Shown here piece after piece: positions 22,655-49,072 of a DNA stretch of 64,000 bases (positions are counted from its first letter, which is position 1; every line of letters starts with the position of its first letter). Both the position numbers and the translations under genes were made by a program. The notes beneath the pieces are model-generated. The model was not told where the DNA came from and made no database searches. It saw only the letters and a program-made list of their open reading frames with translations. The DNA is from Schmidtea polychroa. Taxonomy: Eukaryota. The stretch lies in contig CM097887.1 in assembly GCA_044892525.1 (NCBI GenBank), positions 80,764,397-80,828,396 on the forward strand. Reading direction: 5' to 3'.

Positions 22655-23384
22655 TGTTGGATGACAGAGGAAGAAGAATTGAAGAGTTTGAACTAACACA
22701 CTACTATAGAACGGGCAGCAACAAGTTCAGAGTCAATATCTATGTGGAACCCAGGCAACCAAAGCCGGACAATTCAAAATATTGACGATTATGTGTTTAC
22801 TTTATTCATGCTGTGTCATTTGGACTATCCTTTATTTTACTTATTTTATTTCTTTATGATATTATTGGTGTATATATTAATTCTATAGAAGTTTGTACAT
22901 ATTTTTGAGTAGCTGTTAATTTTTATTTAATATATCTTTCCGTATACATTTAATATTTTTATAAAAGGGTAAATTAAATCATTAATAATTAGTTTTATAA
23001 GTAGAGATAAATAATATAATGAAATAATAATAATACTATAAAATAATTAGAAATCTAAATTTTGTTAAAATAATGCACGCAAGTTGTAAGGAAAAATAAT
23101 TGTAATTATTAAATAATAGAGTAAGAAAAACATCTGGTTAAATAATATCTGTTAGAGTATTAAGGAAAAACAGAACAAACACATAACATTCACACAGTAC
23201 ATACAAGCATATTCGGTTGGATATTTAAAGGATTTTTTTGGATTTTTGTAATCTAGCAAACAAATTCATATTTGGTAAATTTTTCATTATAATAAAAGTT
23301 ATATAAATTACTTCGTCTTTTGATATAATTGTACGTATATAAGAACCAGTAAGTTGAGTGTTCCCGAATATCGAGACCTCAACA
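22655..23384 (+). repeat. Gypsy 5' LTR (730 bp; lacks about 233 bp present in the 3' LTR)
   Basis: Near-identical to 34618-35580 apart from the internal deletion and a few substitutions. Confidence 0.95.
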
Positions 23385-23386
23385 TT

Positions 23387-23404
23387 TGGTGCCGCGAACC
23401 GGGA
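23387..23404 (+). promoter_or_regulatory. Primer-binding site (tRNA-Phe- or tRNA-His-like)
   Basis: tggtgccgcgaaccggga 2 nt after the LTR; TGG start complementary to tRNA CCA. Confidence 0.85.
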
Positions 23405-23625
23405 CTTTAAAATCAATTATTGTTATTCACAATTTGGGGGATAGGAATTGAGATCAGAGGGTATAGTATTTTATATTGGGAAAATATATTTATAAAAAAA
23501 CAATATCATTGACCAATTTTTAAATAAATAAATTCAGTTTTGAAAATTATTAAATAATTCAAAAAGATAAAATAGATAATCAACCAGAAATAGTTTATAA
23601 TCTCAGAAATAGAATAGTCTATAGG

Positions 23626-25272
23626 ATGAATAATAATAATAATAATTACATAAAAATTTTACCAGTAGAACCATATAGAGGAGAGCCTGAAAAGTTCGAC
23701 GATTTTTTCACTGAGATCGCTCAGTATGCAGAAGCTTGTGGTTGGACACCTGATGAATTAAAAATGAGAATCCCATTATACTTAAAAGGCTATGCGTTAC
23801 AGGCATACAATAACTTAGAATGTAAAGGGAATAATTTTGATCAACTCGTAAGATATCTGAGAGCAGAAATAGTAATCGATAGCGATTTACAAAAGATAAA
23901 TGTTCAAAAATTTAGAAACAGATATCAAGGTACTAGAGAATCAGTTGGTGAATATGTATATACGATTACGGAGTTAGCGAAAAAGGCATTTGGTGCGGGC
24001 GAGCACACAGCAAAGTTAATTGAGGATCAGTTTTGGAATGGTATACAAAAATATTTATATAAAGCATTAATTATGGTAGAATATGGTAATTTAAATGAAT
24101 TAGTTCATAAAGCTAAACGTATAGAAGCAATACAACGAGATAGATTTAGCTCACATGTAGATGCAATGGAAATTCAAAAACCCATCGAGGTAAAATCTGA
24201 GTTGGGTAAGTCAGATGACAACATTCCCTGGGAGGAGATGAAGCAACTATATTTAAACTTTGTAAAAAATAGACGAAGGGTAAGCCCGAGTCCGGATAGA
24301 AGTCAATCGCCTGAAAACAGGAGGAGGTTTGATAATGTGAGAAACAGAAACTTTGAGAATAGAAACAATAGAAACACTTTTGATAGAGATAATCGATATG
24401 AATACAATAGAACTAATTATACGAGAGATAATCGAGTCGATTTTAGTAGAAATAATTTGAGAAATAATAAATATGATAGAAGTAATAGATATGATAATAG
24501 AGATAATACAAATGATTTGAGACGTAGACAGACAAGTCCATATAGACAGAATTCATATAGAGAAAGGCGAGCAAGCCCTTATAATAATGATGGTAGAGAT
24601 AAAGTAAATTTTAATGGACAGATCAAATGTTATAATTGCCAAAAATATGGTCACTTAGCTAAAGTATGTAACAATGCGCGAAGCGAATCGCCTAATAGAG
24701 TGAGATTTAAAAATGAGCCTGAGATAAAACAAATTAATAGTGCTGAGTTGATATCAGCTAATGAGGAAATAAACAGTTTGAGAGAGGAATTAAAAGAATT
24801 TAAAACTCAATATGGGAGACTTATTGAGAGAAAGTTAGAAATGTCATTAAATGAGTTTCAGTGTTTTACTAATGATGTAGATATAGATAATGATGAGTTT
24901 CGCGAAGCAAGAGAAGCGGATGAGAAATTTCTTGCAGAAGCAAATAGATGTAAAGAATTAAAAGAGGAATTGAAAGAGACATTAGAGAAATGGCCTTATG
25001 ATGACAATGAGACATTGCGTATAATAAATAGAGTTCAAGTCGAAGGAATTGACTTAGAATATTTGAGAAATTTGATACCACTAATGGTAAAGAGGCAAAA
25101 TATGACAAGAGTATTTGAACTAGAAATAGAATTGAAAGAAATGATAAAGTGTTATGGTGAATTTGTGAGAAAAATTCAGAAATTACATGAGTCATTGAAT
25201 ATAACTATTGAGGCAAAGGACCTTTCGAGAATACTTATGGTAGTACAGGGGTACATGTTTGCACAAAAGTGA
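23626..25272 (+). CDS. gag: Gypsy Gag with RS/RD-rich region, zinc knuckle and coiled-coil C-terminal extension
   Basis: EPYRGEPEKFDDF...ACGW, Q..RESVGEY, CYNCQKYGHLAKVC. Confidence 0.92.
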   Translation: MNNNNNNYIKILPVEPYRGEPEKFDDFFTEIAQYAEACGWTPDELKMRIPLYLKGYALQAYNNLECKGNNFDQLVRYLRAEIVIDSDLQKINVQKFRNRYQGTRESVGEYVYTITELAKKAFGAGEHTAKLIEDQFWNGIQKYLYKALIMVEYGNLNELVHKAKRIEAIQRDRFSSHVDAMEIQKPIEVKSELGKSDDNIPWEEMKQLYLNFVKNRRRVSPSPDRSQSPENRRRFDNVRNRNFENRNNRNTFDRDNRYEYNRTNYTRDNRVDFSRNNLRNNKYDRSNRYDNRDNTNDLRRRQTSPYRQNSYRERRASPYNNDGRDKVNFNGQIKCYNCQKYGHLAKVCNNARSESPNRVRFKNEPEIKQINSAELISANEEINSLREELKEFKTQYGRLIERKLEMSLNEFQCFTNDVDIDNDEFREAREADEKFLAEANRCKELKEELKETLEKWPYDDNETLRIINRVQVEGIDLEYLRNLIPLMVKRQNMTRVFELEIELKEMIKCYGEFVRKIQKLHESLNITIEAKDLSRILMVVQGYMFAQK

Positions 25273-28200
25273 ATAAAGTGAAACAGATGGCCAGAGCAAA
25301 TTGGCCCGAGAAATTGGGAGATAATGATAAAGTGAAACTGTATTTTAACGGCGTAGAAATGATGAATAATGAATATATAATTGACTATGGAGTAAACGTC
25401 ATTGATAACAATATTATTTCTGCAGTAATAGAAAGGCAAGAAAGTAAAGAAATTGATACACCAACTCCATCAGTAGAATTGAGTATAAATGACGAAAATG
25501 ACTATGATAAATTATTTAGATTGTGGGATGCTTCTTCAGGAGGAGCAATGAGGTCACCAACAGTTAGCGATGAAATCTTTAAACCTATTGATACTAAATA
25601 TGATAATTTACATGAGACAATAGAAAAAATTGCGAAACAAGCAAATATGCAGGACGCAGAGACGATGAGACGAGGTAGAGGAAGGCCTCGAAAATCTGAA
25701 ATAGCCGAAAAGTCAGATGACAGAAAGGCAGCAGAGCGTTTAAGAGATATTGCAAATAATATGAGACAGGAAGTCCCAAAAAATCAGGATAATGACAAAG
25801 ATATAAAGATGATAACTGAGTTAGTTAAAGCAATGAATATGAGACGATTTCCGGAAGCAAAACCATCAGCGTTAATAGAAAATATAGTTAAAAAGATTAA
25901 ATTAATGGAAAAAGAGATTAGAGAATTGAGTGCAGAGGAAGCAAATGAAGAGACAGTGTTAAAGATATTATTTACAACAGGAGTTAATCGAGATAAAGTG
26001 ATTACGGCAATGGCATATTTAATAGCAAGATACAAGAAACTTTTGCGATTGAATCCAAAGAATCAAATAGAAAATATCGCTAAAATGATATATAATAAAT
26101 TAAAGATAGATGCTATGCCATGGATAAAATTAAAGGGAGGATGGAAAATACTGTATGATGAGAGTCTAATCGAAAGTGCTCAGGAAAGCGTAGAAGATAA
26201 TATTAATGTAGAAATAGATGATACGGAGGAAACAGTAAAAAATCTAGTAAATAAAACAACTATGAAACCAAGTCAAAAAGAAAGAAAGTCGACAATGTCA
26301 ATAGTAATTATAGTAATAACATTGTTATTAGATCTGATAAAAGGGAATAATGCGATCATAGCGTATGACTGTCAGAATCCCAAGTGGGGACAAAAATATT
26401 CATTGCTGGATGTAGAAAATTGCCCAGAGGCTAATCCAACAAAATTAATTGTAGCAGACCCCAAGATTTTCCATATATATCAGGAATCTGATTTCATTCA
26501 CACTGAGGCAGGAGAATGTATCGTTAAATATTCAGAGGAAAGTTTTGTATGTAATAAAATAGCGAGAACAATATTAACTCCAACATGGGCACCAGAAGCA
26601 ATAATAATAACGCCAGTTGAATGCGAAAATGCATTTAAAACAAAAAAGATAAAAACGCCGGATGGATTTGAGTTAGATGCTCAGGTAGGAGCACGAGTTA
26701 GACAATTAGTAAATGTCGTGGGATGGTCATCAACAGGAGGATATTGTGAAGGAGGAAGGTATAAAATATGGGGGCATGTGGCAGACAATATTGTAGTGAG
26801 ACGGCAGTATTATATTGAATTAAGGAAATTCAAAGCGTCATTTGATAGTTCATCAAAGAAAATGATGACACATAAGTTCTGCACATTAGAGGAGACAAGC
26901 TGTGATACAGGCGAGTCAATGATCATATACAGAGTGAATAAATACGAATGCCATCTAACTAAATTAAAGACACTGAAATTCAGAACGATACGAGGTAAAC
27001 AGTTTACGGATGTAGAATCCAAGAGCATCAAAGACCAAAAACGACGAGCAACGATAATTCAAGAGAGAGATACCCCAACAATATACATATCAGATTCTGA
27101 AACAGAGGCGATGAGATTTGTAGGAAAAGGTGAAAGCATAAAATGTGGCAAGGCAGTCGTACAAACAAATTATTATATCAGCGGAAGTGAAATTAAAGAG
27201 GCAAAATCGAGAATAGATAAATTCGACGTCAAGCTAGCATCATATTTTAATAATAAAATTGACTATTTCTATCATCATCAGTTAGTACAATTGGACAAGG
27301 TGTACCAAGCAACTATCGCAAACGATTGTAAACTTAATAGAGAAATATTAAGGACAAAGATGGCGGTTGCAGTCACAAACCCAGATTTAATGGCACCAAT
27401 TTTATTTGCAGAAAAAGGGACATTTGCAAGAGTTGTCGGTGAAGTGATACAAACATTTCAGTGTAAACCGGTTAGCGTATCGTTAGCAACGAATAATAAG
27501 TGCACAAACGAATTGCCAGTAGTGTATAAAGGAGAAACTGTATACCTCCAACCAATAACAAGGATATTAACAGATAAAGACTATGTTCCGAGAAAAATTG
27601 ATAAATGTACTAATCTATTAGATCCATTATACAAAATAAATGATGATATGTGGATTACAATGTCAGATAGAAAAGAAGCGACTAAACCACAAAAACTAGA
27701 ACTAACTGAACTTGAGAAAAAGTTAGAATTTCAGGAAGTCAACGAAATGGATAACAATGGGATGTATACGAGAGAGGCGATAGAGAGCGCCAGAAAACAT
27801 ATGTTATTTCCTCATGAAAAAGAAAAAGTTCTTTCTATCATGGTAAACAAAATCATCGAAAATGGTTATGGAGGAAATTACAACTTTGATGTATTATTAT
27901 CAAAAGAGCACTTCGAGAAAGTTGTGTATAGAGTATTATACAGCATATGGGGATATTTTGCGATTCTCGGAAATACGTTTTCCACTATATTGGGTATATA
28001 TTATACAGTAGCACTATTGAAAATGATTTGCTCATCATTAGTTTCGTTAAGACAACTGAGACAAGTTTTTGGTAATTCATATAAAATGATAGCATGTTTA
28101 TGTCCATTCATAGCCAAATATTTGATCACTGCGAGGTACGATAAGGAAATCAAACGGATGAAAAGTCGAAGGGAAGAGGGTGAAATAATGATCACCAATG

Positions 28201-30008
28201 AGAAAGAGGACGATACAAACAGATCAGAAAATATTGAGCAACCACATATTGGGTTATATGATAATCAAAGAGAACAATTGACAGAATTGAGAAATAATAT
28301 TGAAATTAGAATCCCAGGTGAAAATGGTAATTGTCATTGTGTTCCAAGGAAAACTTATGGATGTTACGGGTTAGAACTTGACGATATATTAGAAGGGTTA
28401 AATGAAGCAAGGCCTAAATTACAAATAGTGATAAATGATACGATAATAAAGACATTATGTGACACAGGAGCAGCAGCTTCTATGATTCGTGAAGATCAGT
28501 TAACCAGAAACCAAAAGAAAAATATCGTGAGCACACGAGATAGATTAATTTCATTATCATCACATTACATACCATTAAAAGGCGATATCGAATTAACAGT
28601 CCACTTTTCAGATCAAGTGGTAGAACATGTCTTCAAGGTAGTAGCAGAGTGTAAATGCGTATGTGTCCTTGGGATGGATATACTCAAAAAGTTAAAAAAC
28701 TGTGTAATCGATTTAACGGATAGCACAGTCAAACGCAAGGCAATATATCAAGACGCAAGATTTACTGAAGTAATTGCATTAGAGACATTTGAACTAGAGT
28801 ATCAAAGTGATCATATAATTCCAGTAAAAGTTAATGTTAAAAGTGAGGACACTTTCATTTTCGAGCCTGAAACGGCAATATCACGAAATCATAACGTAAT
28901 GTTAACAGACGAGTGTGTAATTCCAAATAATGGGATAATTCCAATAAGAATCGCGAATTACGAAAGAAATAAAGTAAAAATTCATAAAGGTACAAAATTG
29001 GGAAAGTTGTTCAAAGGTGAATTAGAGCAAACATTTGAAGTATGTGAGATGTCGATGACGAAGGATGTCAGTGAAAGAATGGTCGAACAGAGTAGAGCGA
29101 ATAATATCAAATTTTATGATAAAATTAAAATAAATAATAATTATCTAAATGAAACACAACAACTACAACTACAAATATTACTTGACGAATACAGTGATGT
29201 TTTTGCAAAACACGAATTTGATTTAGGAGATACTGACATTATCAAACATGTAATCGATACAGGGAATGCTAGACCAATAAAACAGAGACCCTATAGTGTA
29301 CCATATAAACTGAGGGAGGAAATAAAACGACAAATTAAAGAATTAAAAGAGGCAGGCGTAATAAAACAAAGTTTTTCACAATGGGCATCACCTATCGTAC
29401 CAGTTAGAAAGAAAGACGGGGAAATTCGAATGTGCATTGATTATCGTAAATTAAATGATGTAACAGTAAAAGACTCATACCCATTCCCAAAAGCACAAGA
29501 ACAATATGATAAACTTAGAGATACTAAATATTTCACAGTAATAGATGCAAATAAAGGCTACATGCAAATTCAAATGGAAGAGGGGGATGCGGAAAAGACA
29601 GCTTTTGTGATAGAAGATGGTTTATATGAATATACAAGATTACCTTTTGGGTTAACTAATGCGCCAGCAACATTTCAACGTTTAATGAATACAGTATTAG
29701 TAGACGTACAACATTGCGCAGTATATATGGATGATATATTAATTTCATCAAAAACATTTGAGGAACATCTAAAAGATATAGCTAACGTACTAGAAAGATT
29801 AAAAAAAGCAAAAATCAAAATAAAACCCACTAAGTGTAAATGGGCAGAACCTTCAGCATTATTCTTAGGACATATAGTTACAGTAGATGGTATAATACCT
29901 AATCCCGATAAAATTGAAGTAGTTAAAAAATTCCCAGTTCCAAAAACATTACAACAAGTACAGGGATTTTTAGGTCTCACAGGATATTATCGCAAATTCA
30001 TACAATAA
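25269..30008 (+). CDS. env-pol: Polyprotein part 1: AT-hook region, signal-like segment, chuvirus-like class III glycoprotein, TM, protease, RT
   Basis: RRGRGRPRK; MSIVIIVITLLL...AYDC...YSLLDVENC; GEV..FQCKPV.V, LPV, GMYT...MLFP; CDTGAAAS; YMDD. Confidence 0.88.
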   Translation: MNKVKQMARANWPEKLGDNDKVKLYFNGVEMMNNEYIIDYGVNVIDNNIISAVIERQESKEIDTPTPSVELSINDENDYDKLFRLWDASSGGAMRSPTVSDEIFKPIDTKYDNLHETIEKIAKQANMQDAETMRRGRGRPRKSEIAEKSDDRKAAERLRDIANNMRQEVPKNQDNDKDIKMITELVKAMNMRRFPEAKPSALIENIVKKIKLMEKEIRELSAEEANEETVLKILFTTGVNRDKVITAMAYLIARYKKLLRLNPKNQIENIAKMIYNKLKIDAMPWIKLKGGWKILYDESLIESAQESVEDNINVEIDDTEETVKNLVNKTTMKPSQKERKSTMSIVIIVITLLLDLIKGNNAIIAYDCQNPKWGQKYSLLDVENCPEANPTKLIVADPKIFHIYQESDFIHTEAGECIVKYSEESFVCNKIARTILTPTWAPEAIIITPVECENAFKTKKIKTPDGFELDAQVGARVRQLVNVVGWSSTGGYCEGGRYKIWGHVADNIVVRRQYYIELRKFKASFDSSSKKMMTHKFCTLEETSCDTGESMIIYRVNKYECHLTKLKTLKFRTIRGKQFTDVESKSIKDQKRRATIIQERDTPTIYISDSETEAMRFVGKGESIKCGKAVVQTNYYISGSEIKEAKSRIDKFDVKLASYFNNKIDYFYHHQLVQLDKVYQATIANDCKLNREILRTKMAVAVTNPDLMAPILFAEKGTFARVVGEVIQTFQCKPVSVSLATNNKCTNELPVVYKGETVYLQPITRILTDKDYVPRKIDKCTNLLDPLYKINDDMWITMSDRKEATKPQKLELTELEKKLEFQEVNEMDNNGMYTREAIESARKHMLFPHEKEKVLSIMVNKIIENGYGGNYNFDVLLSKEHFEKVVYRVLYSIWGYFAILGNTFSTILGIYYTVALLKMICSSLVSLRQLRQVFGNSYKMIACLCPFIAKYLITARYDKEIKRMKSRREEGEIMITNEKEDDTNRSENIEQPHIGLYDNQREQLTELRNNIEIRIPGENGNCHCVPRKTYGCYGLELDDILEGLNEARPKLQIVINDTIIKTLCDTGAAASMIREDQLTRNQKKNIVSTRDRLISLSSHYIPLKGDIELTVHFSDQVVEHVFKVVAECKCVCVLGMDILKKLKNCVIDLTDSTVKRKAIYQDARFTEVIALETFELEYQSDHIIPVKVNVKSEDTFIFEPETAISRNHNVMLTDECVIPNNGIIPIRIANYERNKVKIHKGTKLGKLFKGELEQTFEVCEMSMTKDVSERMVEQSRANNIKFYDKIKINNNYLNETQQLQLQILLDEYSDVFAKHEFDLGDTDIIKHVIDTGNARPIKQRPYSVPYKLREEIKRQIKELKEAGVIKQSFSQWASPIVPVRKKDGEIRMCIDYRKLNDVTVKDSYPFPKAQEQYDKLRDTKYFTVIDANKGYMQIQMEEGDAEKTAFVIEDGLYEYTRLPFGLTNAPATFQRLMNTVLVDVQHCAVYMDDILISSKTFEEHLKDIANVLERLKKAKIKIKPTKCKWAEPSALFLGHIVTVDGIIPNPDKIEVVKKFPVPKTLQQVQGFLGLTGYYRKFIQ

Positions 30009-32696
30009 AATTCAAAAATAGCAGCACCACTAATTGAGTTAACAAAAGCAGTCAAAACAAAGGGAGAGAGTAAAGGAGTGTTAATAGTACAAGAGATTAA
30101 CGATAAAATTAACAAGCCACAAAAGAAATGGAAAGATGAACACCAAAAAGCTTTTGATCAACTAAAAGAAAAATTAATAACAGCACCGATACTAAGATAC
30201 CCAGACTTTAAAAAACAGTTCATTGTCATGACAGACGCCAGCGGGAAGGCCGTAGGGGCAGTCTTAGGACAAGAAGAGGAAAAGGGTAAAGATTATGTAA
30301 TAGCTTATGCAAGCAAAACATTAAAAGGAGCACAGATTAGGTACTCAACAATTGAAAAAGAATGTTATGCTATAGTTTTTGCATTAAAACAATTTAAACC
30401 ATACATATATGGAACTGAAGTAGTAATTAGAACAGACCATAAGCCATTAGAAGGGTTATGGAAACATAAAGATACATCCAGTAGACTGTTAAAATGGGCA
30501 ATGAAAATACAAGACATGCACATAAAGATTGCATACAAACCAGGTAGAATAAACAGGAATGCAGATGCATTATCACGAATTCCAGAGTTAGGAGCACTAG
30601 AAGTTTTTGCATTAGTAACTGAAAAACCAATAGAAATATATGAGGAACAAATGAAAGATCCAGAACTCTTCAAGATAAGAGAAGAAATAAAAAAGGGAAC
30701 TAACCAAAAGTATAAAATCTGTAAGAAGTTAATTGTTATTGAGGATTTTAGTGGTAAACAATTAATAGTAGTACCACAAAGATTAAGACAAATTCTTCTG
30801 TTACAATATCACGATGGTGCTCTAGGAGGTCATTTATCAAGTAGGAAAACAGCAAGCAGATTGATGCAAAAATATTATTGGGACGATTTGAAAAAGGATG
30901 TCAAGAGATGGTGTAATGCATGCACAATATGCGCAACTAGAAAAAACACAAAAACAAAAACTAAAGCACCTTTACATCCAATCCCAGCTACAACATCACC
31001 AATGGAACTGTGCGCAATGGATTTTTTGTGTAAACTACCCACAACAATTAATGGGAATAAACACATATTAGTTTTTAGCGATTATTTTACAAAATGGGCA
31101 GAGGCATTTCCTACAAAAGATGAAACAGCAGAAACAGTAGCTAAATTACTTGTGGAAAAAATAATCTTTAAAATCGGTACACCGAGAAAATTATTAACAG
31201 ATAAAGGGAAAAATTTCATGAGTGAAACTATAAAAAGAGTAGCTAACATATTTAACATGCATAAAATCAACACAACAGCATACCACCCTCAGACCGATGG
31301 TTTAGTAGAGAGATTCAATGGGACATTGCTAAGTAGATTAGCTGTGTTTGTGGGAAAAAACCAAAATGATTGGGATGAATACGTTAATCAATGCACATAC
31401 ATCCATAATATCACACCAAATGAGACAACGGGATATTCACCATATTTTCTAATGTTCTTAAGAGAGCCTGCGACACCGATTGATACAATTTTTGAGCCTC
31501 GAGTATCACAATATTTAGATGCGCCAGATTATGTAACATTAATGCAAGAGAGATTACAAGAGGTATATAAGGTTGCAAATTTAAAAGTTAAATTCAGACA
31601 AGAACAATATAAAGCAGATTACGATAAAAATAGCAAACCTCATAATTTTAAAGTGGGAGATAAGGTTAGACTTATGTCTCCACAAGTAGGAAAAGGCAAA
31701 ACAACTAAATTAGCAAGACCATTTAAAGGACCATATGAAGTAGTAAAAGTAGTACATGAAAACCTGCATTTACAAAAACATAAAAATGAGGATCCGATAA
31801 TAGTACATGTTAATAGATGCAAACTAGCAGAAACAGAGTTAATAGAAAAACCACCTCACAAATATGGATTACGATCACAAAAAGCACTGATGATGGCAAT
31901 GATCTTTTTAACAATTATAGGGCTATGTAAATCAACTGAAGTAGAAAATGAGAGCATACACTCAGTAAAATACATGGAGGAAGATATTTTAATCAACATT
32001 TCACCGTATAAAATTAAAGTATATAACTTGAATAAATCACCCATAAGAGACTTATATCTAGAAACTGGGGACGATATACCCAAGCTTATGAAAAAAATTG
32101 AGAATAGATCAACTAATGAATTTGAAAGAGGAGATCTACAGCCTAACACAAATTACACACTTTGTGCACAATGGAATACCTTAGTTGACACATCACAAGT
32201 AAGGTGCAAAAGAATAAGAACCACTATCACAAACATATATAAGCCCATAGATAATAGCATGCCAACAACCACCATAACAATAACTACCACAAATTCGGCA
32301 TCCACCCAACAGTCATCACAAATGATAACAAACACAGACAGAGAAACGACATTTAAAGTAACTAGACAAGTATATAAAAAATTAATAATAAAAAATCTAA
32401 GACAGTTCGATAGGAAACTGATAAAATTACCTACGGGAAAACCCATAATCATAAATAACTGGGATGAACTAAGAGCATTTCAAGTAAAACCTGCTAAACC
32501 ACGATGGCCTTTCTATGTAATCTCATCAAGCATTTTAGCATTGAGTATTTTAGCTATTATCACCAGTGTTCAAGTGTATAAAAAATACAAATGGAAAAGG
32601 CAGCGGTATCGGCACCGACTGGTCAAAAATGTACCAGGGCATTTTCATTTGGATAAGTATAGGCCAGGACAATACACAATGTCCTCATTGGTTTAA
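30009..32696 (+). CDS. pol: Polyprotein part 2 (same frame, after a single TAA): RNase H, integrase, then signal-like segment, FN3-like domain, Thr-rich stalk, TM, basic tail
   Basis: MTDASG, YASKTL, TDHKPL, ADALSR; HDG...GH..C..C; MDF, TDKGKNF, DGLVER; GPYEV; LQPNTNYTLCAQW; FYVISSSILALSILAII. Confidence 0.9.
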   Translation, partial: NSKIAAPLIELTKAVKTKGESKGVLIVQEINDKINKPQKKWKDEHQKAFDQLKEKLITAPILRYPDFKKQFIVMTDASGKAVGAVLGQEEEKGKDYVIAYASKTLKGAQIRYSTIEKECYAIVFALKQFKPYIYGTEVVIRTDHKPLEGLWKHKDTSSRLLKWAMKIQDMHIKIAYKPGRINRNADALSRIPELGALEVFALVTEKPIEIYEEQMKDPELFKIREEIKKGTNQKYKICKKLIVIEDFSGKQLIVVPQRLRQILLLQYHDGALGGHLSSRKTASRLMQKYYWDDLKKDVKRWCNACTICATRKNTKTKTKAPLHPIPATTSPMELCAMDFLCKLPTTINGNKHILVFSDYFTKWAEAFPTKDETAETVAKLLVEKIIFKIGTPRKLLTDKGKNFMSETIKRVANIFNMHKINTTAYHPQTDGLVERFNGTLLSRLAVFVGKNQNDWDEYVNQCTYIHNITPNETTGYSPYFLMFLREPATPIDTIFEPRVSQYLDAPDYVTLMQERLQEVYKVANLKVKFRQEQYKADYDKNSKPHNFKVGDKVRLMSPQVGKGKTTKLARPFKGPYEVVKVVHENLHLQKHKNEDPIIVHVNRCKLAETELIEKPPHKYGLRSQKALMMAMIFLTIIGLCKSTEVENESIHSVKYMEEDILINISPYKIKVYNLNKSPIRDLYLETGDDIPKLMKKIENRSTNEFERGDLQPNTNYTLCAQWNTLVDTSQVRCKRIRTTITNIYKPIDNSMPTTTITITTTNSASTQQSSQMITNTDRETTFKVTRQVYKKLIIKNLRQFDRKLIKLPTGKPIIINNWDELRAFQVKPAKPRWPFYVISSSILALSILAIITSVQVYKKYKWKRQRYRHRLVKNVPGHFHLDKYRPGQYTMSSLV

Positions 32697-32841
32697 AAAT
32701 AATATAGATAATTTCAATTCCTATTGGTCAATGATAATATTTAAACTCACATATATTTATATTTTTATTTATATTGAAGCGTATAAGGTAAAGCCTCAAA
32801 TGCGCTGTAAATATGTATGTTTATATTGTTTTTTTAGAAAA

Positions 32842-34404
32842 ATGCAATCCAACAATACCAGAGTCAATCCCAAACCATTCAATCCCATACAACGTCCAGT
32901 CCAACAATACAGCTGCTCCATTCAAAAACTATACCACAGTTTCTACAAAAATTTGCAAAATAAAATCACCTCAGACGGCTCACCAATCACCATCAGAAGT
33001 TTCCCTAACCAGGTCTGCATACCCAATGAAATGAAGTGCGAAATCGAAGAAAGAGAAATGCACTTAGTTAAATTTAATGAAGACCGAAGGATAAAGCTGA
33101 GAGATATAATAGGCACCTATGATATGTTCGAAAATGCAGATATCGCAGCAAATGAAGGAAGAAAAGTCCCACATAGAATACTATTCCATATGACCAGAAC
33201 GGAGGTCTCAATTTGCCAACAACGAATCCCAATTATAACAACAAGCAACTGCACGGTGGTGATCAAAACGATGAAGACAAATCGAAGCGTGCCAAACGAT
33301 TTCAACAATTTGGTCATCCAAATGAACAATTTACCCTGTGTGATGGCTATCGAAATTCTATATGTCCCAACCATACCCAATCCTTTCAGAGAATTAGAGA
33401 TGATACAGTCGGAAATCGTGATACATCAGGATTTCATCTCGAAACGGATGTCATTCACACATCAACAGTTGTCAATCCCCGAACGACAAAGGGCAATTAT
33501 GTTCGTCGATGTCAAAGAAGTATGCGACATCAATAACAATCTCAGACCAGTAGAGATATGCATCAGAAATTTTAGAGGAGAAATCGTATACAATAAAAAG
33601 GTGACTCCACGCACCAAAATCCAACATTATTACCCGGAAAAGACAAGAGCAGACAGGGATTCAATAAGAGAAAATGAAGACGAATACCAAGCGCTGATCG
33701 ACATACAGAAGCTGCTACTCGGAAAAATCATTGTGGGATACGAAATAATAAAGAAACTCAAGACGCTGACATTAGATCTGTACAATGTCATGGGAGTCAG
33801 AGAGTTAGCTGAAGATGTGTTCATGTGTTCATTCGTCAAAAATGTAGCACCACACAGAATCAAACTATCGAATCTCGCATACAAGGTAATCGCAACACAC
33901 CCAAAATGGAAGAAAGACAAAGCAATCAACAACATCCTCAGAAAACCCGAACCGTTCTCAGCAGAAGATACAACACTAATCGCAAAAGTCATTTACCTCT
34001 TGGTCGAAAAGCAATGGGAAGAAGTCATAAGGTGGGATATGACAGCATTCCAAAAGGAAAATAATGGCCATCAACTCAGTCCAATAGAAGAAAACAGCGA
34101 TGAGCCAGAAGAATTTGAGGGAGATATATATATCGAACCCTCACAAAGAGAATTGAAATTCAATAAAGATGGGAGCAGACGTACCTTTGAAGATGAACTA
34201 ATAGACAGCGATGATGACATCATATTCGTCAAAGAGGACAAAAAACCACAAGCAATCACAATAAAGGAAGAACCTCAGACATCAAGTAGTTACAACTATG
34301 CTGACCCACAATGTGATTTAGACTCGGATGAAGAATATTTCTCACCGAGCGAAGCAATGCAGATAGATGACGAACTAGGACCAGAGCCAAATGTCGAGTT
34401 GTAG
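32842..34404 (+). CDS. Gypsy accessory ORF3 (520 aa) with degenerate DEDDh (REX4/ISG20-like) exonuclease domain and acidic tail
   Basis: MFVDVKE...VEICIRNFRGEIVYNKKV.P...LLLGKIIVGYEI...LTLDL; long intact ORF inside the LTRs. Confidence 0.65.
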   Translation: MQSNNTRVNPKPFNPIQRPVQQYSCSIQKLYHSFYKNLQNKITSDGSPITIRSFPNQVCIPNEMKCEIEEREMHLVKFNEDRRIKLRDIIGTYDMFENADIAANEGRKVPHRILFHMTRTEVSICQQRIPIITTSNCTVVIKTMKTNRSVPNDFNNLVIQMNNLPCVMAIEILYVPTIPNPFRELEMIQSEIVIHQDFISKRMSFTHQQLSIPERQRAIMFVDVKEVCDINNNLRPVEICIRNFRGEIVYNKKVTPRTKIQHYYPEKTRADRDSIRENEDEYQALIDIQKLLLGKIIVGYEIIKKLKTLTLDLYNVMGVRELAEDVFMCSFVKNVAPHRIKLSNLAYKVIATHPKWKKDKAINNILRKPEPFSAEDTTLIAKVIYLLVEKQWEEVIRWDMTAFQKENNGHQLSPIEENSDEPEEFEGDIYIEPSQRELKFNKDGSRRTFEDELIDSDDDIIFVKEDKKPQAITIKEEPQTSSSYNYADPQCDLDSDEEYFSPSEAMQIDDELGPEPNVEL

Positions 34405-34410
34405 GAGCCA

Positions 34411-34545
34411 ATGTTCATCATCAAAGAGGGAAGATCCACTATCTCGGAAAAAGAAATACATCAACACTTCGGTAGACGAATTATTGATGGTGATGTGTTA
34501 AAATTGGCATTGAAGAAAGATTCCAAAGAGCAACAATGTATATAA
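34411..34545 (+). CDS. Small ORF (44 aa) between ORF3 and the PPT
   Basis: ATG 7 nt after the ORF3 stop; overlaps the next ATG. Confidence 0.3.
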   Translation: MFIIKEGRSTISEKEIHQHFGRRIIDGDVLKLALKKDSKEQQCI

Positions 34546-34748
34546 ACGGTTGCGAAATCGAATTGGTCCTTAGCGATAAAGGTAATGAGGACATTACTTT
34601 ATCGGCCCTAGGAGGAGTGTTGGATGACAGAGGAAGAAGAATTGAAGAGTTTGAACTAACACACTACTATAGAACGGGCAGCAACAAGTTCAGAGTCAAT
34701 ATCTATGTGGAACCCAGACAACCAAAGCCGGACAATTCAAAATATTGA
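34536..34748 (+). CDS. Small ORF (70 aa) spanning the PPT and running into the 3' LTR
   Basis: Open frame with GC-richer, coding-like composition extending about 130 bp into U3. Confidence 0.4.
   Translation: MYINGCEIELVLSDKGNEDITLSALGGVLDDRGRRIEEFELTHYYRTGSNKFRVNIYVEPRQPKPDNSKY
34610..34617 (+). promoter_or_regulatory. Gypsy polypurine tract
   Basis: aggaggag directly before TGTTGG. Confidence 0.7.
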
Positions 34749-35580
34749 CGATTATGTGTTTACTTTATTCATGCTGTGTCATTTGGACTATCCTTTATTT
34801 TACTTATTTTATTTCTTTATGATATTATTGGTGTATATATTAATTCTATAGAAGTTTGTACATATTTTTGAGTAGCTGTTAATTTTTATTTAATATATCT
34901 TTCCGTATACATTTAATATTTTTATAAAAGGGTAAATTAAATCATTAATAATTAGTTTTATAAGTAGAGATAAATAATATAATGAAATAATAATAATACT
35001 ATAAAATAATTAGAAATCTAAATTTTGTTAAAATAATGCACGCAAGTTGTAAGGAAAAATAATTGTAATTATTAAATAATAGAGTAAGAAAAACATCTGG
35101 TTAAATAATATCTGTTAGAGTATTAAGGAAAAACATCTGCTAAAATATATTAAATTCATTTTTTAAGCATACTTAAGAATACTTAAAATATATTAATTAA
35201 ATTCTTAATCATTTTCTCTTAAAAGAAAAAGTATAAATAGCGAGTCAAAATTCATTTTTTTCGCCCCAAAATTTTAACCGCGTTAACATACTAAAAAGGT
35301 TAATCCTTATTAGTGCTAAAACTCGAACAGACAAACAGAAACGTTCAAAAGCCTACACGCAACACAGCAAGAGAACACATAACATTCACACAGTACATAC
35401 AAGCATATTCGGTTGGATATTTAAAGGATTTTTTTGGATTTTTGTAATCTAGCAAACAAATTCATATTTGGTAAATTTTTCATTATAATAAAAGTTTTAT
35501 AAATTACTTCGTCTTTTGATATAATTGTACGTATATAAGAACCAGTAAGTTGAGTGTTCCCGAATATCGAGACCTCAACA
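34618..35580 (+). repeat. Gypsy 3' LTR (963 bp)
   Basis: TGTTG...CAACA followed by TSD ATGT. Confidence 0.95.
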
Positions 35581-36234
35581 ATGTTTTTTGACGCAAAGTT
35601 CGATAAAGTTCCGGACAAATTTATAAAAAAATGAATCATGATAAAGTTTCGAACACATAGTTATTTACACAAAGATAAGAATATTGATCAAAGTTGTTTT
35701 TCAATCATTAGCTCTTGTTTGGGGAATTGGATTGTTGAGTTGTCGATCCGGATTGCAGAGATGGAGGTCTACGAGAAGATTTTATTTATTGACGTTCTTC
35801 GGCGTACACGTTAACTCTGTACTTGTCTGGCCCTCCTCTATAATATTTGTCTAAAGTGAATGCAGTGATGGGTCTACCCTCATCATCTAACACTGGCATG
35901 TTATCAATTAATTTTTAAAAATTACTAAATGATCTCAAATATTTTGCATCATCGAAATTTTGCCCAGTTTCATAATTTTATAACATCACTGATTTCCTGT
36001 TCGACACTTTAATTTTTAACTATTTGCTTAAAATTAAAATTAAAAATTTTTACAATAAAATTATTTTGTGTCAAATTAAGTAAATTGTTTAAATTTCCCA
36101 AAATGTAAAATTTCATTTTAAAATTTATGATTTAATCTCTCATCTTTACAAATATTATGTTGGTGCCAGAATGAAATTTGTGGATTGATAATTGTTTGGT
36201 AAGGCAAATTTTTCTGGTAACATTTCCTTTAAAG

Positions 36235-39200
36235 ATGTGTTGTAATTGCTGTTCAAAACTGTCGAAATGTATTTTATTGTTACTAAATTTAACTTTTACA
36301 GTACGATTTTTCATTCGGTTTACGTTTGAATGAGAATTAGTTATCAGGATTTGTCTTGATTATTTTGTCGTCTATTTACATGGCCAACGGTCAGATGGAG
36401 TATGGAATTGACCTAGTTGACGGTTTCAGCAATAAGGCCACTCTGATTACGGTTTTTGTATTTGGAATCATAATTTCCTCCATATCAATTCTTGGATATT
36501 ATGGTACTGTGAAAAATAGCAGATATTGGTTACGAATTGTAAGATTAATTGACTTGGCATAAGAATATAATTTGTCTATTCAAATTAAGTATCTTTTGCT
36601 TATTTTATTCATGATGTTCATCGAACTCGGAGGAACTATATTTATTGTCACTAATCGAAAGTCGGTGAGTTGATTTTTTGATGAAAACTGATATTTATAC
36701 TTGTTGGGTTAAGAATGAGAGATGTTTAATGAGAAAATAAGGCAAACAAGTTGACTGGAAATGACGTACACAATTTTATACGTTTCATTTCACTCATTAA
36801 AAAATCACAAACTTTATGTTATAGCAAACACAGACTTTATTTTAATTCACTAAGATTTTTATTATTTGGCAGAAAATATATGAAACTTCATGATTACAGT
36901 GCATAGTTAGTTTCCTAATGAAAAGCGGATCAGGGTAGGTAACAAGAGTGAAGTGTAGGTGTCCATTCAGCGTCTATTGATCCAATGTCATTAAAAATTC
37001 AACATTTAAAATTATCTAATTCATGCCACAACAATGAGACTGCTTTCTAAATGATTTTTGGTAAGTTAATTTTAATTTTTAATAAATCAAATTCAACTAA
37101 AAAAACTTTATTTTTAAACACATCAAATCATCACATTGAAAGCGCACAAAACTAAACCACACAATCAAAATCCAATTACACCTATTTCCAATGAATAAAA
37201 GTTTATCAACTAATTCCATAATATTGAAGTTTCTATAATTTAACGAAAAATCGATTAACTTTAGAATAGGAACACACAAACTTACCCGTCTCATTTACAT
37301 TGACAATTTTGGTTTCAATACATGGTCCACTCAAACCTTCGTAAGAAAAAAAGAAATTACATTCCGCAGTAATATAAAGTAACTGAAGACAAAACATGTC
37401 TTTTATATTAGAGATTAGCCACAAATTAATTGTAGGATCCTACAAAATGAATACATAAGAGTTTTATTAATGAATTTACTACAAAATTGAATGGGCCGGG
37501 ATACCATGTCATTCAAGACAATGTTTCATAACTCCAAATAATTACATTGAAGACCTGACACTGTATTGCTCATTCCTCAATCCAATAGAAAGTGTATTCA
37601 GCAAAATCAGGCAGCATCAATAAAGCAATATCTAGAGCAAATGGATTCAGTTCCATGTTCTTTTCAATCAGATTCGACATTATCAAAGAGGCTATAGAAA
37701 ATGAGCTCGATATAATAGATAATAATAAAATCACACTATCAATATGGTGAGAACTTCAGAGATCCTAATAAGATAAACCTAAGTACACAATCGGAAAGCT
37801 TTAAGAACCTTTTAAAATGTCCGAGACATAACTACTCTAATAACATCATTTTGATTATCCTAAGTATTATTAGAACCCTCGAAAGTTTTAAAGTATCATT
37901 ATCCGTACTATGATTAAGATGATTATTGTTGTTATTTTCATTTCTATCACAAATATGATTATTACTTCATATTGTTATTATTAACATTAATATTATTATT
38001 AAGGAAATTCTTGTTATTATTACCTTCATTCTAATGACCATTAGTGTTACCGTTATTATGAGCATTTGTATCATACGATACATATGGTTAGTATGATTAC
38101 CCTAAATTTTGCGACTATTATAATTTTTTATCTAAGAATCACCATCACTTTGAACACAACCATGTCATGTCAACCTTATATAAGACAATAGTTCGATTTA
38201 CTTCCTATTAGTGGGTGGGAAGCCCTAAATAATCGATACAATAAATCAGCAGAGAATCTTTGGTCATCATACTATTCGCATCTAGCGACCCATCAGAAAT
38301 GCGCAGTGGATGTTCGATCAGCCATAATCATGCCTTTAAGTTTTGTTTGACTTTTCTATCGTTCACACCGTTACTAGTTTTATAATTATCATTATTGTTA
38401 ATAACGCTATTCTCGACCTCATGATTATTATTAATTACTAATAATCTCATTAGTAATATAACTATACTTATCATTAATACTAGTACTAACATTAGTGTTA
38501 GAATATTTTTTCTCTATGGGTGGTGTAACTAAGGGATAATTTCGATTATAATATGGTTCATCGTCTGGGAAATTAATAAATGAAAGCATATTCTGGTTTA
38601 GTTTAAGCCTCAGTAACAGTTTAATAAACGTCGTAGTTGATTGTCTATTTCCCTCGCAGCTCCTCTTACTTACTTATTAGAACTCGGGTTCATCATCCTT
38701 TAGAATTGGCAAGTCTGAGTAAGAAATTTCTTACGCCAAATTCAATAATAGCTATCATTACAATCATTGTTACTGCTAGTATTAGGTGACCAGACGTCTC
38801 GCTTTTGGCAGGACAGTCCCGATTTTTCACGATTTATCCCGCGTCCCGAACGTTTTTCAAAAGTCCCGACTTTTAGAATTAAGTTAAATTTTATATTTAT
38901 GAAAATCATTGTTTTTCATTCTAAGAATCCTATAGACCAGTGCTTCTCAAACTTTCTGATGTGGCGTACCGGCAGATGTTTTTGGGAATGTGACTGTTTC
39001 ACTTCTTGCTGATGACTTACATTCCATGTTACATCTTGCTGCTCCACACGTGTGGATCAGGTTGTCAGATGTGTGACATAGAGTAAAATATCAGTCAAAT
39101 CTTTTAATAAAGTGCATACAATAACTGTTTCCAATTAAATTACTACCATGCTGTATTCTTATTAGATAAATAAACAAAAAATATCAGTCACATGACCCAC

Positions 39201-42200
39201 CTGTTTCTCATGGCATGTAATTTTACATTTGTTTATTTTCCTTTGAAAATCTCTTCGCGTACCGGCAGACTATTGCTTGCGTACCGGTGCCGGTACGCGT
39301 ACCACACTTTGAGTAGCACTGCTATAGACTACTAAGACTTACATATTGCTTTTCTTACCCAGTTACATTGTATTTGTTTCTCAGATCATACACTTCGTGT
39401 TCGTACTGCGTGCTAGGAAGATAATTAAGCAAATAAATATTACAAATCTGCTACTTACCATAGAAAATTAAGGTAAGTAATTTATTTATATATTTCATAA
39501 ATACATAAATTTTCTTAAACTTAGCTTAAAATACTCGTACTCTTCAATTTTATATTGATAACAAAAAGTATATCACTGACCCTAATCTTAAAAGAAATTT
39601 TAGAAAGAAATATAAAAATAAAATTTTGCAAATATTTTAAGTTATAGTAACTGCAAAGATTATTTGGAAGAGTGGGCGGTACAATATAACGATATTGATC
39701 ATTTTCGTTGGGTTACATTAAAACCAGAACTTAATTGGAACGATGTGCAAAAATCATTTGATTATATTTCTTAAAATTTCCCAAATAGTAATATTTCCGA
39801 AAATGATCTTTTTAATGAAGTGTCTTTAGTAAAAAATATATTGATAAGGAAAAGCTTAAATATTGGGCATCAGAAAAAATCACAGTAGAAAACAAATGGT
39901 TAGAAATATTTCATCATTTGGTAGCAAAATATGTTCCATACAATAATGTATTGAAAATTGTGGAATATGCACTCTTTACCTGGAACTAACGCTGCGACTG
40001 AACGCGCTTTCTCTACAGTAAATCAAGCGTGGACATCAGAAAAATCAAAATTAAGTGTTGAAACTTTGAAAGCCATTTTAAGTGTCAAATATAATTTGAC
40101 AAATTCTTGTGAAGATTTTTACAATATTTTGAAAAATGACAACAATCTATTGAAACAAATTCACTCAAATAAAAAATATGTCAAGGAATAAAATATTTTA
40201 CAATTTTTTATATTTATAAATTGTACTTATGTTAAAAATCAAAAAAATATTACCATATTATTTTTATTCTATATGAAAATTTTTCAAAGTTGTCCCGCTT
40301 TGCCCATCTAAAAATCTGGTCACCTTATACTTGTAGCATGATTGGTATTATTAGCTAATGTCGTTACCCACAATTTCATTTAGGTTCGATTCTATAAGCA
40401 GGTTATTATTATTATCGTTATAATTAGGTCATTATTGATTCTTGGTCATCATCAGTGAACCCGGATAATCCCTCCCGTAAGATGTTGACTTAGATATCTC
40501 TGTAGACTAAGTAATTTGCTATGGAACCTTTTTTTCTTCATCGAATCTAATCATGTTATTTTAATTCCATTCTTCTTTATTTGTAGAAATAATGAACAGT
40601 AAAGCCAATGCTCTAAAACAATGCTTTTCTTTTGCCGATAAGAATGCACAGAACGCTTTACTGCAAAAGTAAATCCGGTTTTTGAAAATAAACATTGATC
40701 GTCTGGAGAGAACTTGGTTCACTCCCCTCCAGATGAAAGGGAGCCATCAAAAAATACGGATCTGGTATTTTCCCCCTATTGCAAAAACGGTATAATTCTT
40801 CCCCTATTTTTTAAAAAAATAATTAAAAATTTGAAAATAAATAAAAAAAATAGTATTAAAATAAAGAATACCTAAATAAACATTATCGAATTAAATTATT
40901 AAAGTCTCTGTTTCCAAGATTATCCTTCCATGTGCAATTATTTAAATACTGTTCCAGTGAATGCATGCTAAAACCCATCATTCTTCGTATTCTTCGTTTC
41001 AAGTTTATTCCACAATGAGTATTAAGTCCGTTAACAGGGTTTACAAATTTTATGCTGTGGTTTACTGTTTGATGTCCATATCCTTAGTTCGATAATTGAT
41101 TTTGAGCCCGCCATTTATCACTCCAAATCATAGAAACAGAATGACAAAGACTTCTTATAATAGGACGCAATACACTTGAAGATTTGTTATCCACCAAACA
41201 TACGTAATATTTTGCAGGTGTGGAAGATGTATCGGCTACACCAAACACCCATTGCCGCTAAGTCTTATTGGATTCCCTGTAAAATATATGTGTATCTGCC
41301 AAATCAGTATGCACTTTTAAGATAGTGGTTTTTGAGACGTTGTAATCTCTTTCAGTAGGGAAAAGTGGTGTTTCGAATAACTATTTATAGCATACTATAA
41401 GCATTACTGCCAGGTCTGATTTACATAATTTTCAAAAAACGATCCTTTTCTTATGGACACATACTTGTTCTTATTATTACAACAAGATTTATAACACCTA
41501 AAAACTGTTCCATCCCGATGCCTTTTGTACTTCACGCTTTTTAGAATAGTCATACATTTTTCACAGAGTACGATTCTTCTTAAGATTCCTTTAAACGTGC
41601 AGTATTCAACTGCTGCTGGTGTGTCATTCAATAGAGATAAAAGTTCATTAGAAAAATCGATCGGCATTTTTTGAAATTTATATTTAATTTAAAATTAAAT
41701 AAATATGTTTAATGAGTAGTATTTTCCCCCTACTACTCCAGATCTAAAAATACATCGCCTGGAGCACTATTGTGATAGTTTAATCACGGAAAACAGAGCC
41801 CAGCAAGCTCTGTATCAGGCCTATACCGCCCGCGAGCTCGAGACTCGTTGGTGACTTCTGTCCAAACCCAAGTCAAGCTCAACATGCCTCTCGTGAGGGT
41901 ACAATTAATAGGATTGAGTGTGCCTACCCTAGTGCTGGCAGTTCACAAACCTAAGAGGCGAAATTTGTCCAAAGCAGAAAGAAACGCCCAAAAAGGGCCC
42001 CTGCTCTGCAACACTATCGATTCTTCAGATCTTACAGTAGAGCTGCCGGACGATGTCTATTTACTGCCATTAGGAGAAAATGTGTTTGAATTAGATACCC
42101 TACAGGCAGATAATGAACAGAATGGCTGGTAGAGTCTCTTCAATTTTAATCTCAACGCGATTTTTGATTATATTTGTAGTTCGAAATTTAATGTAGATGC

Positions 42201-43227: not shown

Positions 43228-43270
<43 letters not shown>

Positions 43271-47509: not shown

Positions 47510-49072
47510 ATGCAATCCAACAATACCAGAGTCAATCCCAAACCATTCAATCCCATACAACGTCCAGTCCAACAATACAGCTGCTCCATTCAAAAACTAT
47601 ACCACAGTTTCTACAAAAATTTGCAAAATAAAATCACCTCAGACGGCTCACCAATCACCATCAGAAGTTTCCCTAACCAGGTCTGCATACCCAATGAAAT
47701 GAAGTGCGAAATCGAAGAAAGAGAAATGCACTTAGTTAAATTTAATGAAGACCGAAGGATAAAGCTGAGAGATATAATAGGCACCTATGATATGTTCGAA
47801 AATGCAGATATCGCAGCAAATGAAGGAAGAAAAGTCCCACATAGAATACTATTCCATATGACCAGAACGGAGGTCTCAATTTGCCAACAACGAATCCCAA
47901 TTATAACAACAAGCAACTGCACGGTGGTGATCAAAACGATGAAGACAAATCGAAGCGTGCCAAACGATTTCAACAATTTGGTCATCCAAATGAACAATTT
48001 ACCCTGTGTGATGGCTATCGAAATTCTATATGTCCCAACCATACCCAATCCTTTCAGAGAATTAGAGATGATACAGTCGGAAATCGTGATACATCAGGAT
48101 TTCATCTCGAAACGGATGTCATTCACACATCAACAGTTGTCAATCCCCGAACGACAAAGGGCAATTATGTTCGTCGATGTCAAAGAAGTATGCGACATCA
48201 ATAACAATCTCAGACCAGTAGAGATATGCATCAGAAATTTTAGAGGAGAAATCGTATACAATAAAAAGGTGACTCCACGCACCAAAATCCAACATTATTA
48301 CCCGGAAAAGACAAGAGCAGACAGGGATTCAATAAGAGAAAATGAAGACGAATACCAAGCGCTGATCGACATACAGAAGCTGCTACTCGGAAAAATCATT
48401 GTGGGATACGAAATAATAAAGAAACTCAAGACGCTGACATTAGATCTGTACAATGTCATGGGAGTCAGAGAGTTAGCTGAAGATGTGTTCATGTGTTCAT
48501 TCGTCAAAAATGTAGCACCACACAGAATCAAACTATCGAATCTCGCATACAAGGTAATCGCAACACACCCAAAATGGAAGAAAGACAAAGCAATCAACAA
48601 CATCCTCAGAAAACCCGAACCGTTCTCAGCAGAAGATACAACACTAATCGCAAAAGTCATTTACCTCTTGGTCGAAAAGCAATGGGAAGAAGTCATAAGG
48701 TGGGATATGACAGCATTCCAAAAGGAAAATAATGGCCATCAACTCAGTCCAATAGAAGAAAACAGCGATGAGCCAGAAGAATTTGAGGGAGATATATATA
48801 TCGAACCCTCACAAAGAGAATTGAAATTCAATAAAGATGGGAGCAGACGTACCTTTGAAGATGAACTAATAGACAGCGATGATGACATCATATTCGTCAA
48901 AGAGGACAAAAAACCACAAGCAATCACAATAAAGGAAGAACCTCAGACATCAAGTAGTTACAACTATGCTGACCCACAATGTGATTTAGACTCGGATGAA
49001 GAATATTTCTCACCGAGCGAAGCAATGCAGATAGATGACGAACTAGGACCAGAGCCAAATGTCGAGTTGTAG
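47510..49072 (+). CDS. Duplicate of ORF3 (DEDDh-like)
   Basis: Identical translation to 32842-34404. Confidence 0.65.
   Translation: MQSNNTRVNPKPFNPIQRPVQQYSCSIQKLYHSFYKNLQNKITSDGSPITIRSFPNQVCIPNEMKCEIEEREMHLVKFNEDRRIKLRDIIGTYDMFENADIAANEGRKVPHRILFHMTRTEVSICQQRIPIITTSNCTVVIKTMKTNRSVPNDFNNLVIQMNNLPCVMAIEILYVPTIPNPFRELEMIQSEIVIHQDFISKRMSFTHQQLSIPERQRAIMFVDVKEVCDINNNLRPVEICIRNFRGEIVYNKKVTPRTKIQHYYPEKTRADRDSIRENEDEYQALIDIQKLLLGKIIVGYEIIKKLKTLTLDLYNVMGVRELAEDVFMCSFVKNVAPHRIKLSNLAYKVIATHPKWKKDKAINNILRKPEPFSAEDTTLIAKVIYLLVEKQWEEVIRWDMTAFQKENNGHQLSPIEENSDEPEEFEGDIYIEPSQRELKFNKDGSRRTFEDELIDSDDDIIFVKEDKKPQAITIKEEPQTSSSYNYADPQCDLDSDEEYFSPSEAMQIDDELGPEPNVEL

Follow-up and report, generated by a model that had tools for sequence, protein, structure and literature searches.

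An accessory ORF was analysed in a 64,000-nucleotide stretch of Schmidtea polychroa DNA, which as a whole is called the window here. It was found that the ORF is the last gene of a Ty3/gypsy LTR element of 12.9 kb (22655-35580) with the order gag-env-pol, as the first-pass annotation, made from the sequence alone, had supposed in calling it a retroelement accessory ORF. The features of the element and its duplicated part are as follows.

22651-22654: 4-bp target duplication before the 5′ LTR; the same 4 bases stand at 35581-35584
22655..23384, plus strand: 5′ LTR with TG...CA ends
23387..23404, plus strand: primer-binding-site-like stretch, beginning with TGG (from sequence)
23554..25272, plus strand: gag with a CCHC knuckle, its frame broken near 25.2 kb in the window copy
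25212..30008, plus strand: Bcl-2-like module, Monjiviricetes-type fusion glycoprotein (env), protease and reverse transcriptase (RT) (from Pfam)
30009..32696, plus strand: RNase H and integrase, then a C-terminal tail that contains a hydrophobic, membrane-like stretch (from Pfam and sequence)
32842..34404, plus strand: accessory ORF (ORF3), 520 codons, ATG at 32842, stop codon at 34402-34404
34610..34617, plus strand: short polypurine tract (from sequence)
34618..35580, plus strand: 3′ LTR, 233 bases longer than the 5′ LTR
47510..49072, plus strand: second, identical accessory ORF, inside a 14,673-bp exact tandem duplication

The LTRs, the target duplication and the order of the Ty3/gypsy pol domains are all those of a GAG-ENV-POL errantivirus. 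The env is of the HSV/gB type (Monjiviricetes-like) and is encoded between gag and pol, upstream of the protease and RT. When 25212..30008 was searched against Pfam, PF24664 was found at E 3.5e-86 and RVT_1 at E 1e-35, and the Bcl-2 match (E 4.9e-5) was under the cut-off. Since the two LTRs differ at only 6 of 730 aligned bases, the insertion is young. The break in the gag frame falls within a ubiquitin-like module, which sister copies have uninterrupted, and the frame of 25212..30008 closes with an in-frame stop codon (30006-30008) in the window copy. The tandem duplication is exact (30309-44981 is repeated as 44977-59649) and starts within RNase H; it is either a recent duplication or an assembly artefact.

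Gene order and env type agree with those of Smed_errantivirus_3 and the other flatworm errantiviruses of the GAG-ENV-POL HSV/gB type, and the env segment listed for Smed_errantivirus_3 looks, by eye, close to the window env (PMC13524379, available part). The word "exonuclease" has 0 occurrences in the main text and seven supplements of that paper, and the extra ORF is undescribed there. The planarian gypsy element Burro/GYPSM1 likewise carries accessory ORFs and has its env placed in frame between gag and pol, together with ubiquitin-like and Bcl-2-like modules, but it exceeds 30 kb, compared with about 13 kb here; the accessible text of that paper mentions an exonuclease for the rotifer Terminons only (PMC6431247).

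The following features lie in and around the accessory ORF.

32778..32806, plus strand: conserved 29-nt hairpin upstream of the ORF, predicted at about -5 to -10.5 kcal/mol in most variants
32830..32837, plus strand: splice-acceptor-like site (pyrimidine run and AG), 4 bases before the ATG
32899..33375, plus strand: double-stranded beta-helix domain (2OG-Fe(II) oxygenase/cupin fold), residues 20-178
33493..34026, plus strand: ISG20/REX4-type DEDDh fold, residues 218-395, with D223, K225, K305, F372 and T377
34054..34401, plus strand: acidic, predicted disordered tail (pLDDT below 50 for residues 411-521)
34210-34230 and 34261-34272, plus strand: SIM-like motif and psi-K-x-E site in the acidic tail
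34405..34722, plus strand: relic of a small beta-rich C-terminal domain, unread in the window copy and encoded by sister copies

The extent of the ORF had been read correctly, but the first-pass annotation missed that an early stop codon truncates the window copy. This stop codon (34402-34404) is present only in the two tandem copies of the window; the other 27 of the 29 family-A loci scored (out of 30, one being without an anchor) continue for 88-115 codons. The window therefore holds a truncated accessory ORF inside an element with broken gag-env-pol frames. In sister copies, the sequence for the C-terminal beta-rich domain extends across the purine tract and into the first part of the LTR; a protein atlas search with this domain of L008 gave no usable match.

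Upstream of the ORF, the closing pair of the hairpin shows a compensatory change, being A-U in subfamily A and U-A in subfamilies B and C. The same 29 nt also contain TATA-like and donor-like sequences, and inverted repeats rich in GC occupy a comparable position in lineage III. The acceptor-like site was found in 42 of 45 motif matches; of the three misses, two are unrelated matches. A single contig of run X1 has foreign sequence joined at the acceptor AG, and both genomic occurrences of that sequence are followed by a GT donor. The join in this one contig, whose donor is not the element's own leader, is a spliced junction and suggests that the acceptor is used. A search of the assembly over the 60 kb that follow the foreign donor site found no copy of the element, which leaves a single contig as the basis of the splice junction. 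No run among those whose contigs were used (X1, X2, X3, X5, X6, X7 and X8) is recorded as RNA, and the expression level is not readable from them. The non-element donor site (L124:1480-1560, G000:C1:157.69 Mb) may mark a chimeric host-element transcript. In-frame fusions of the ORF with pol (L031, L032, L039, L043 and L048) were set aside as copy-level damage, since the deletions and frame changes differ per copy. Three of these (L031, L032 and L043) are internally deleted, the gag-side Ubl/Bcl-2 region being joined in frame to the pol tail and the ORF; they are without env and RT and may form a non-autonomous subfamily.

What does the accessory ORF encode? The motifs from which a REX4/ISG20-type exonuclease had been proposed are all in the translation: FVDVKE (its D is codon 223, 33508-33510), VEICIRNFRGEIVYNKKVTP, LLLGKIIVGYEIIKK, and, in the tail, DDDIIFVKED (residues 457-466). 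The window protein alone gave no match in Pfam and only E 0.66 against ISG20L2. A profile of 12 copies from its own genome matched ISG20L2 (E 5e-5) and ISG20 (E 1.4e-3) in the PDB. Matches to phycobilisome linkers (E 0.008-0.12) were rejected as chance, the value being E 0.41 with the profile. An AlphaFold2 model was built on a natural full-length sister that is 98% identical, using a 60-row alignment. Its mean pLDDT is 76, with most residues of both domains above 90 and the exonuclease domain at 84-98. In this model, ISG20 is the top structural match of the domain (Foldseek E 8e-8; VIA-align Z 17.8, rmsd 2.5, 159 of 168 residues). Both structure searches and the profile matches thus point to an ISG20/REX4-type fold; a failure to predict any DEDD fold, which the first-pass annotation had named as the result that would speak against it, did not occur. 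Arenavirus NP carries a DEDDh nuclease that destroys dsRNA.

By fold, sequence and structure the domain is closest to human ISG20 (1wlj), ISG20L2 (7yw5) and the REX4 group. It differs from them in that four of the five catalytic residues are replaced, a 13-residue basic insertion precedes ExoIII, and the protein also carries a beta-helix barrel and an acidic tail, both fused to the domain. By the alignment, the first Asp (D223) alone is kept, and the other four sites are K, K, F and T. The changes in ExoI and ExoII had been noticed before; the loss of ExoIII (His to F372, Asp to T377) had not. The "ED" at 375-376 lies one place before the catalytic Asp position and differs among the subfamilies; position 376, D in the window, is Q, H or Y in 10 of 50 loci. 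The full set of four acidic ligands and ExoIII His of an ISG20/REX4 enzyme therefore appears not to be preserved in the window protein. Among the first 50 lineage I loci fetched, 48 have D and 2 have E at position 223, position 225 is K in 47 and R in 3, position 305 is K in all 50, and F372 and T377 are each found in 48. In addition, the segment that holds ISG20's ribose contact (around Arg53; role taken from the available part of PMC9157404) is replaced by an invariant YYPEKT. The domain has 35 K+R and 27 D+E, which makes it only slightly more basic than its intact sisters.

It is very improbable that the protein cuts nucleic acids in a non-canonical way with D223 and the lysines. In favour of such an activity, all 50 loci have an acidic residue at position 223, and K305 is invariant. 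However, ISG20 needs Asp11, Glu13, Asp94, Asp154 and His149 according to the same source (PMC9157404), the equivalents of four of these are gone, and the remaining one is E in 2 loci.

It was revealed that the N-terminal third, which the first-pass annotation had passed over when it described the nuclease domain, is a second folded domain. In the model of the full-length sister, residues 20-178 match 2OG-Fe(II) oxygenases. The barrel was predicted with a pLDDT of 88.8 when the window sequence was folded alone. Its structural matches are the prolyl hydroxylase-type P4H 2jij (Z 10.4, rmsd 3.7, 151 aligned), Ofd2 (Z 9.7), ALKBH6 (Z 9.1) and a cupin (Z 8.9); P4H, Ofd2, ALKBH and cupins thus lie within 1-2 Z units of each other, and identity with the solved structures is 3-12%. 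A protein atlas search with residues 15-200 gave no usable match. In a sequence-pattern test, the HxD/E...H iron triad was absent from the window protein and present in 4 of 56 aligned rows. Y35, I-P-N at 60-62, H116 and E171 are kept family-wide in intact and dead members.

The function may accordingly be sought in the barrel, as a pocket for a ligand or modified base or as a divergent site at H116 and E171, with the dead exonuclease as its structural partner. I consider this unlikely. Irrespective of whether the relatives are intact or dead, 51 of 56 aligned ones have H116 and 50 of 59 have E171, and the lowest pN (nonsynonymous proportion) falls in the barrel domain. An extra ORF with a 2OG-oxygenase fold is also known from orchid Ty3/gypsy elements, where an AlkB-type m6A demethylase is encoded (PMC9289625, available part); the orchid protein is catalytically active and close to plant demethylases, whereas the window barrel has no metal triad and is fused to an exonuclease. 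The absence of the triad, the about equal conservation of the exonuclease domain, and Z values of 9-10 that single out no AlkB all speak against this reading.

Is the dead exonuclease the only form of this gene? A genome scan with PF00929 gave 39 matches, and 19 of the 20 fetched were relatives of the accessory ORF, not a host ERI1-like gene, with phmmer E values against the ORF down to 3e-20 (in a small local set). These intact sister ORFs, which the first-pass annotation had missed, sit at the equivalent position of gag-env-pol elements, and the RT of those elements shares 52-55% identity with that of the window. D-E-E-H-D occupies the five catalytic positions in 6 of 7 lineage II and 13 of 13 lineage III ORFs, and lineage III is abundant (111 of 150 rows scored). 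The intact sisters pass the Pfam cut-off for RNase_T (PF00929), and one matches ISG20L2 at E 2e-7. Intact relatives have an ExoIII of the form H-x4-D and DEDDh enzymes as best matches; the DEDDy (RNase D) signature appears to be absent from the accessory-ORF family. In a profile-profile comparison, the dead clade matched 32 intact relatives with a probability of 99.9 over 336 columns, covering both domains.

The rotifer LTR retrotransposons Juno and Vesta and the Terminons also have an extra ORF3 with a 3′-5′ exonuclease fold, and its DEED variant is shared with the intact sisters found here (PMC5408684, available part). The rotifer ORF3, however, is of the DEDDy/RNase D type and reported as intact, whereas the type here is DEDDh/ISG20; an oxygenase-like domain or a dead lineage, both present here, is not described for it in the accessible text (PMC5408684). 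A role in silencing has already been raised for the rotifer ORF3, as a prediction (PMC5408684; the ORF3s are cited in PMC6338049, as far as available).

A library search gave 1180 matches at E ≤0.001, of which the best 150 were read. A retroelement-like group has 56 fully covered library members, 36 intact and 20 changed. Quick trees, made first from 123 of 162 rows (39 partial rows dropped) and then from 39 chosen rows, set this group apart from host-like REX4/ISG20 enzymes with SH-aLRT of 99-100; support was 62, with long branches, on a single versus several origins of the dead forms. One member, L111, is a Burro-like metagenome element with RT, RNase H, integrase and ankyrin repeats, in which a changed copy and then an intact copy stand in tandem (6861-8246 and 8592-9920). 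The other library members are probably retroelement-borne, given the shared architecture, L111 being the one informative contig retrieved. The pol of L111 runs on into a second protease, ankyrin repeats, and Fn3-like and membrane-like segments. Searches for relatives in viral contigs with P0030 or A6 confirmed none, and a metagenome scan with P0016 found none. A separate dead form with D-T-K and without the His or last Asp was found in the same genome as the window (L119, 799-2571, and L120). It is an open 591-codon frame in two identical copies within an older gag-env element that is otherwise decayed, and host domestication is possible. The genome also has a host REX4-like gene with introns (L133 and L134, G000:C2:180.79 Mb), 48-55% identical to a host-like library protein.

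Since L111 retains changed and intact copies side by side, the dead form may have a distinct role. One such role would be that of a partner or dominant inhibitor of an active paralogue, either the exonuclease of a sister element or the host REX4. The tandem in L111 fits this, both kinds are abundant in a single genome, and the trees are compatible with a single old group of dead paralogues. On the other hand, the lineage I elements examined carry the dead copy only, yet they are young and numerous, so that the partner would have to act in trans. I regard this explanation as somewhat less likely still than a function seated in the barrel.

The dead state is not decay. Of 1095 candidate relatives in the genome, 150 were scored, 40 of them at 94% identity or higher; a word-indexed homologue search with the ORF scored 0 of 4703 candidates. 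Lineage I consists of five subfamilies with 55-78% identity over the domain. The check proposed earlier, conservation across copies, gave a clear answer, as the dead state is found in nearly all 50 loci and in five subfamilies. In both folded domains, pS is 0.75-0.95 and pN is 0.09-0.29 for all 10 subfamily pairs; these are raw proportions, corrected dS is saturated for most pairs, and values above 0.75 are an effect of the counting method. In the exonuclease domain, 70 of 186 residues are invariant, and dN/dS is 0.03 within subfamily C. Since synonymous divergence is saturated and amino acid divergence is low across the subfamilies, the dead state has been selected. The dead form is thus of long standing, and purifying selection maintains it.

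From gag to integrase, three sister elements share 90-100% identity with the window copy (92-100% when given for the backbones), but in the ORF or 3′ cassette the identity is 68-72%. In lineage II, RT is 98% and env 99% identical, compared with 74% for the exonuclease and 58% for the barrel. Near-identical backbones with divergent ORFs indicate that old versions of the 3′ cassette have been shuffled onto young backbones.

In contrast with the folded domains, the tail is variable, with 13 of 116 sites invariant. The SIM-like motif that had been noticed in it holds up well, its core being kept in 5 of 5 subfamilies, while the rest of the tail varies. A hydrophobic core, acidic flanks and conservation are all present, making it a good candidate SIM. 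When a complex of the ubiquitin-like module with the SIM-like peptide was predicted, the score was 0.00 against a mark of 0.34, which weighs neither way. The protein could therefore be a protein-binding adaptor, in which dead folds offer surfaces to host factors and the SIM-like tail either acts on SUMO-dependent chromatin silencing, by recruiting or blocking it, or activates the LTR, perhaps in the manner of the 3′-end accessory genes of complex retroviruses. This is a serious candidate, though on balance rather doubtful. Besides the SIM-like core, the psi-K-x-E site is kept in 4 of 5 subfamilies in a tail that is otherwise so variable, a regular expression finds no SIM-like motif in lineage II, YYPEKT is a new invariant surface motif, and the intron-containing host REX4-like gene could be mimicked. 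Against this, short acidic-hydrophobic motifs are common, a Polinton-like ORF in the window having them too, and any partner of such an adaptor is putative.

The reading that I prefer, tentatively and with nearly as much confidence as doubt, is that the accessory protein binds RNA or RNP without cutting it and shields the element transcript from host RNA surveillance. Judged from its sequence and those of its relatives, it is a selected, two-domain protein that is non-catalytic by loss of residues and able to coexist with an active paralogue. Two enzyme folds that both lack metal-binding residues likely bind RNA or RNP rather than cut it. Binding is also favoured because both folds come from families that include RNA-acting enzymes, because two metal ligands have turned into lysine, and because the cassette varies like a conflict gene. 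Moreover, dead DEDD folds bind RNA elsewhere, as in Maelstrom and EXD1 (PMC5408684, available part) and in Exuperantia and PML PXL (PMC13659232, available part). Like the window protein, the latter two have a DEDD fold without the catalytic residues, and PXL too retains one Asp; they are, however, host proteins of separate origin with RNA binding shown, whereas binding by the window protein is predicted (PMC13659232). The precedent is weakened in that their RNA preference is partly credited to a SAM-like subdomain (PMC13659232), and none was seen in the window protein.

Under RNA or RNP binding, the accessory gene would descend from a captured REX4/ISG20-type gene and would be expressed via a spliced subgenomic RNA, for which one contig supports use of the acceptor. 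The lysines at two metal-ligand sites might replace the ions and hold phosphate, the acidic SIM-like tail might steer the protein to SUMO-rich nuclear complexes, and the bound protein would protect the element RNA from host surveillance. Several points temper this. A simple 3′-end form of the RNA-binding decoy that the first-pass annotation had suggested is weakened, since the ribose-contact segment is rebuilt as YYPEKT, so that the classic 3′-end pocket may be gone, and since the charge of the domain is near that of the intact sisters. The lysine argument is weakened because Glu to Lys is a single transition and the Glu site is K or R in just 9 of the 20 changed library relatives. The conflict argument is weakened because the cassette mosaic could arise if templates are switched close to the 3′ LTR and selection acts on the LTR, not on the ORF.

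More broadly, it may be, though I think it rather improbable, that an undescribed accessory family combining an oxygenase-type barrel with an ISG20-type exonuclease, in enveloped gypsy elements of flatworms and other hosts, has diverged into two forms, an active trimmer and a double pseudo-enzyme, both serving counter-defence against piRNA or RNA-modification-based surveillance and carried as old interchangeable cassettes. Few element-encoded counter-measures to piRNA or RNA surveillance are known, and how animal retroelements survive such surveillance is largely open. If the reading is true, the accessory gene would be a suppressor of RNA silencing encoded by an animal retroelement. The candidate is defined, present in high copy and predicted to be well folded, and it comes with natural controls in one genome, where the gene exists both intact and dead and where divergent cassettes sit on backbones that are nearly identical. 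The planarian host makes the ORF open to probing by RNAi, and the intact/dead pair offers a clear example of how a pseudo-enzyme evolves within a mobile element. A review of host-transposon relations names no element-encoded suppressor under the terms searched in its available text (PMC13269885). A fused ISG20-type gene or its dead form was not described in the openly accessible literature searched.

Two further mobile elements were observed in the window. A BEL/Pao pol (1462-5396) has Peptidase_A17, DUF5641 and RT, with a frame change after the protease, and three 78-bp tandem repeats (5830-6071) lie just past its ORF. A Polinton/adintovirus-like element on the minus strand (6581-15811) has polymerase-like ORFs, an integrase with a chromodomain and a double-jelly-roll capsid-like ORF (PF21738, E 0.004). 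It is flanked by long inverted (AAT)n tracts (6330-6478 and 16360-16505), and its ORF at 9978-10535 bears SIM-like acidic motifs.
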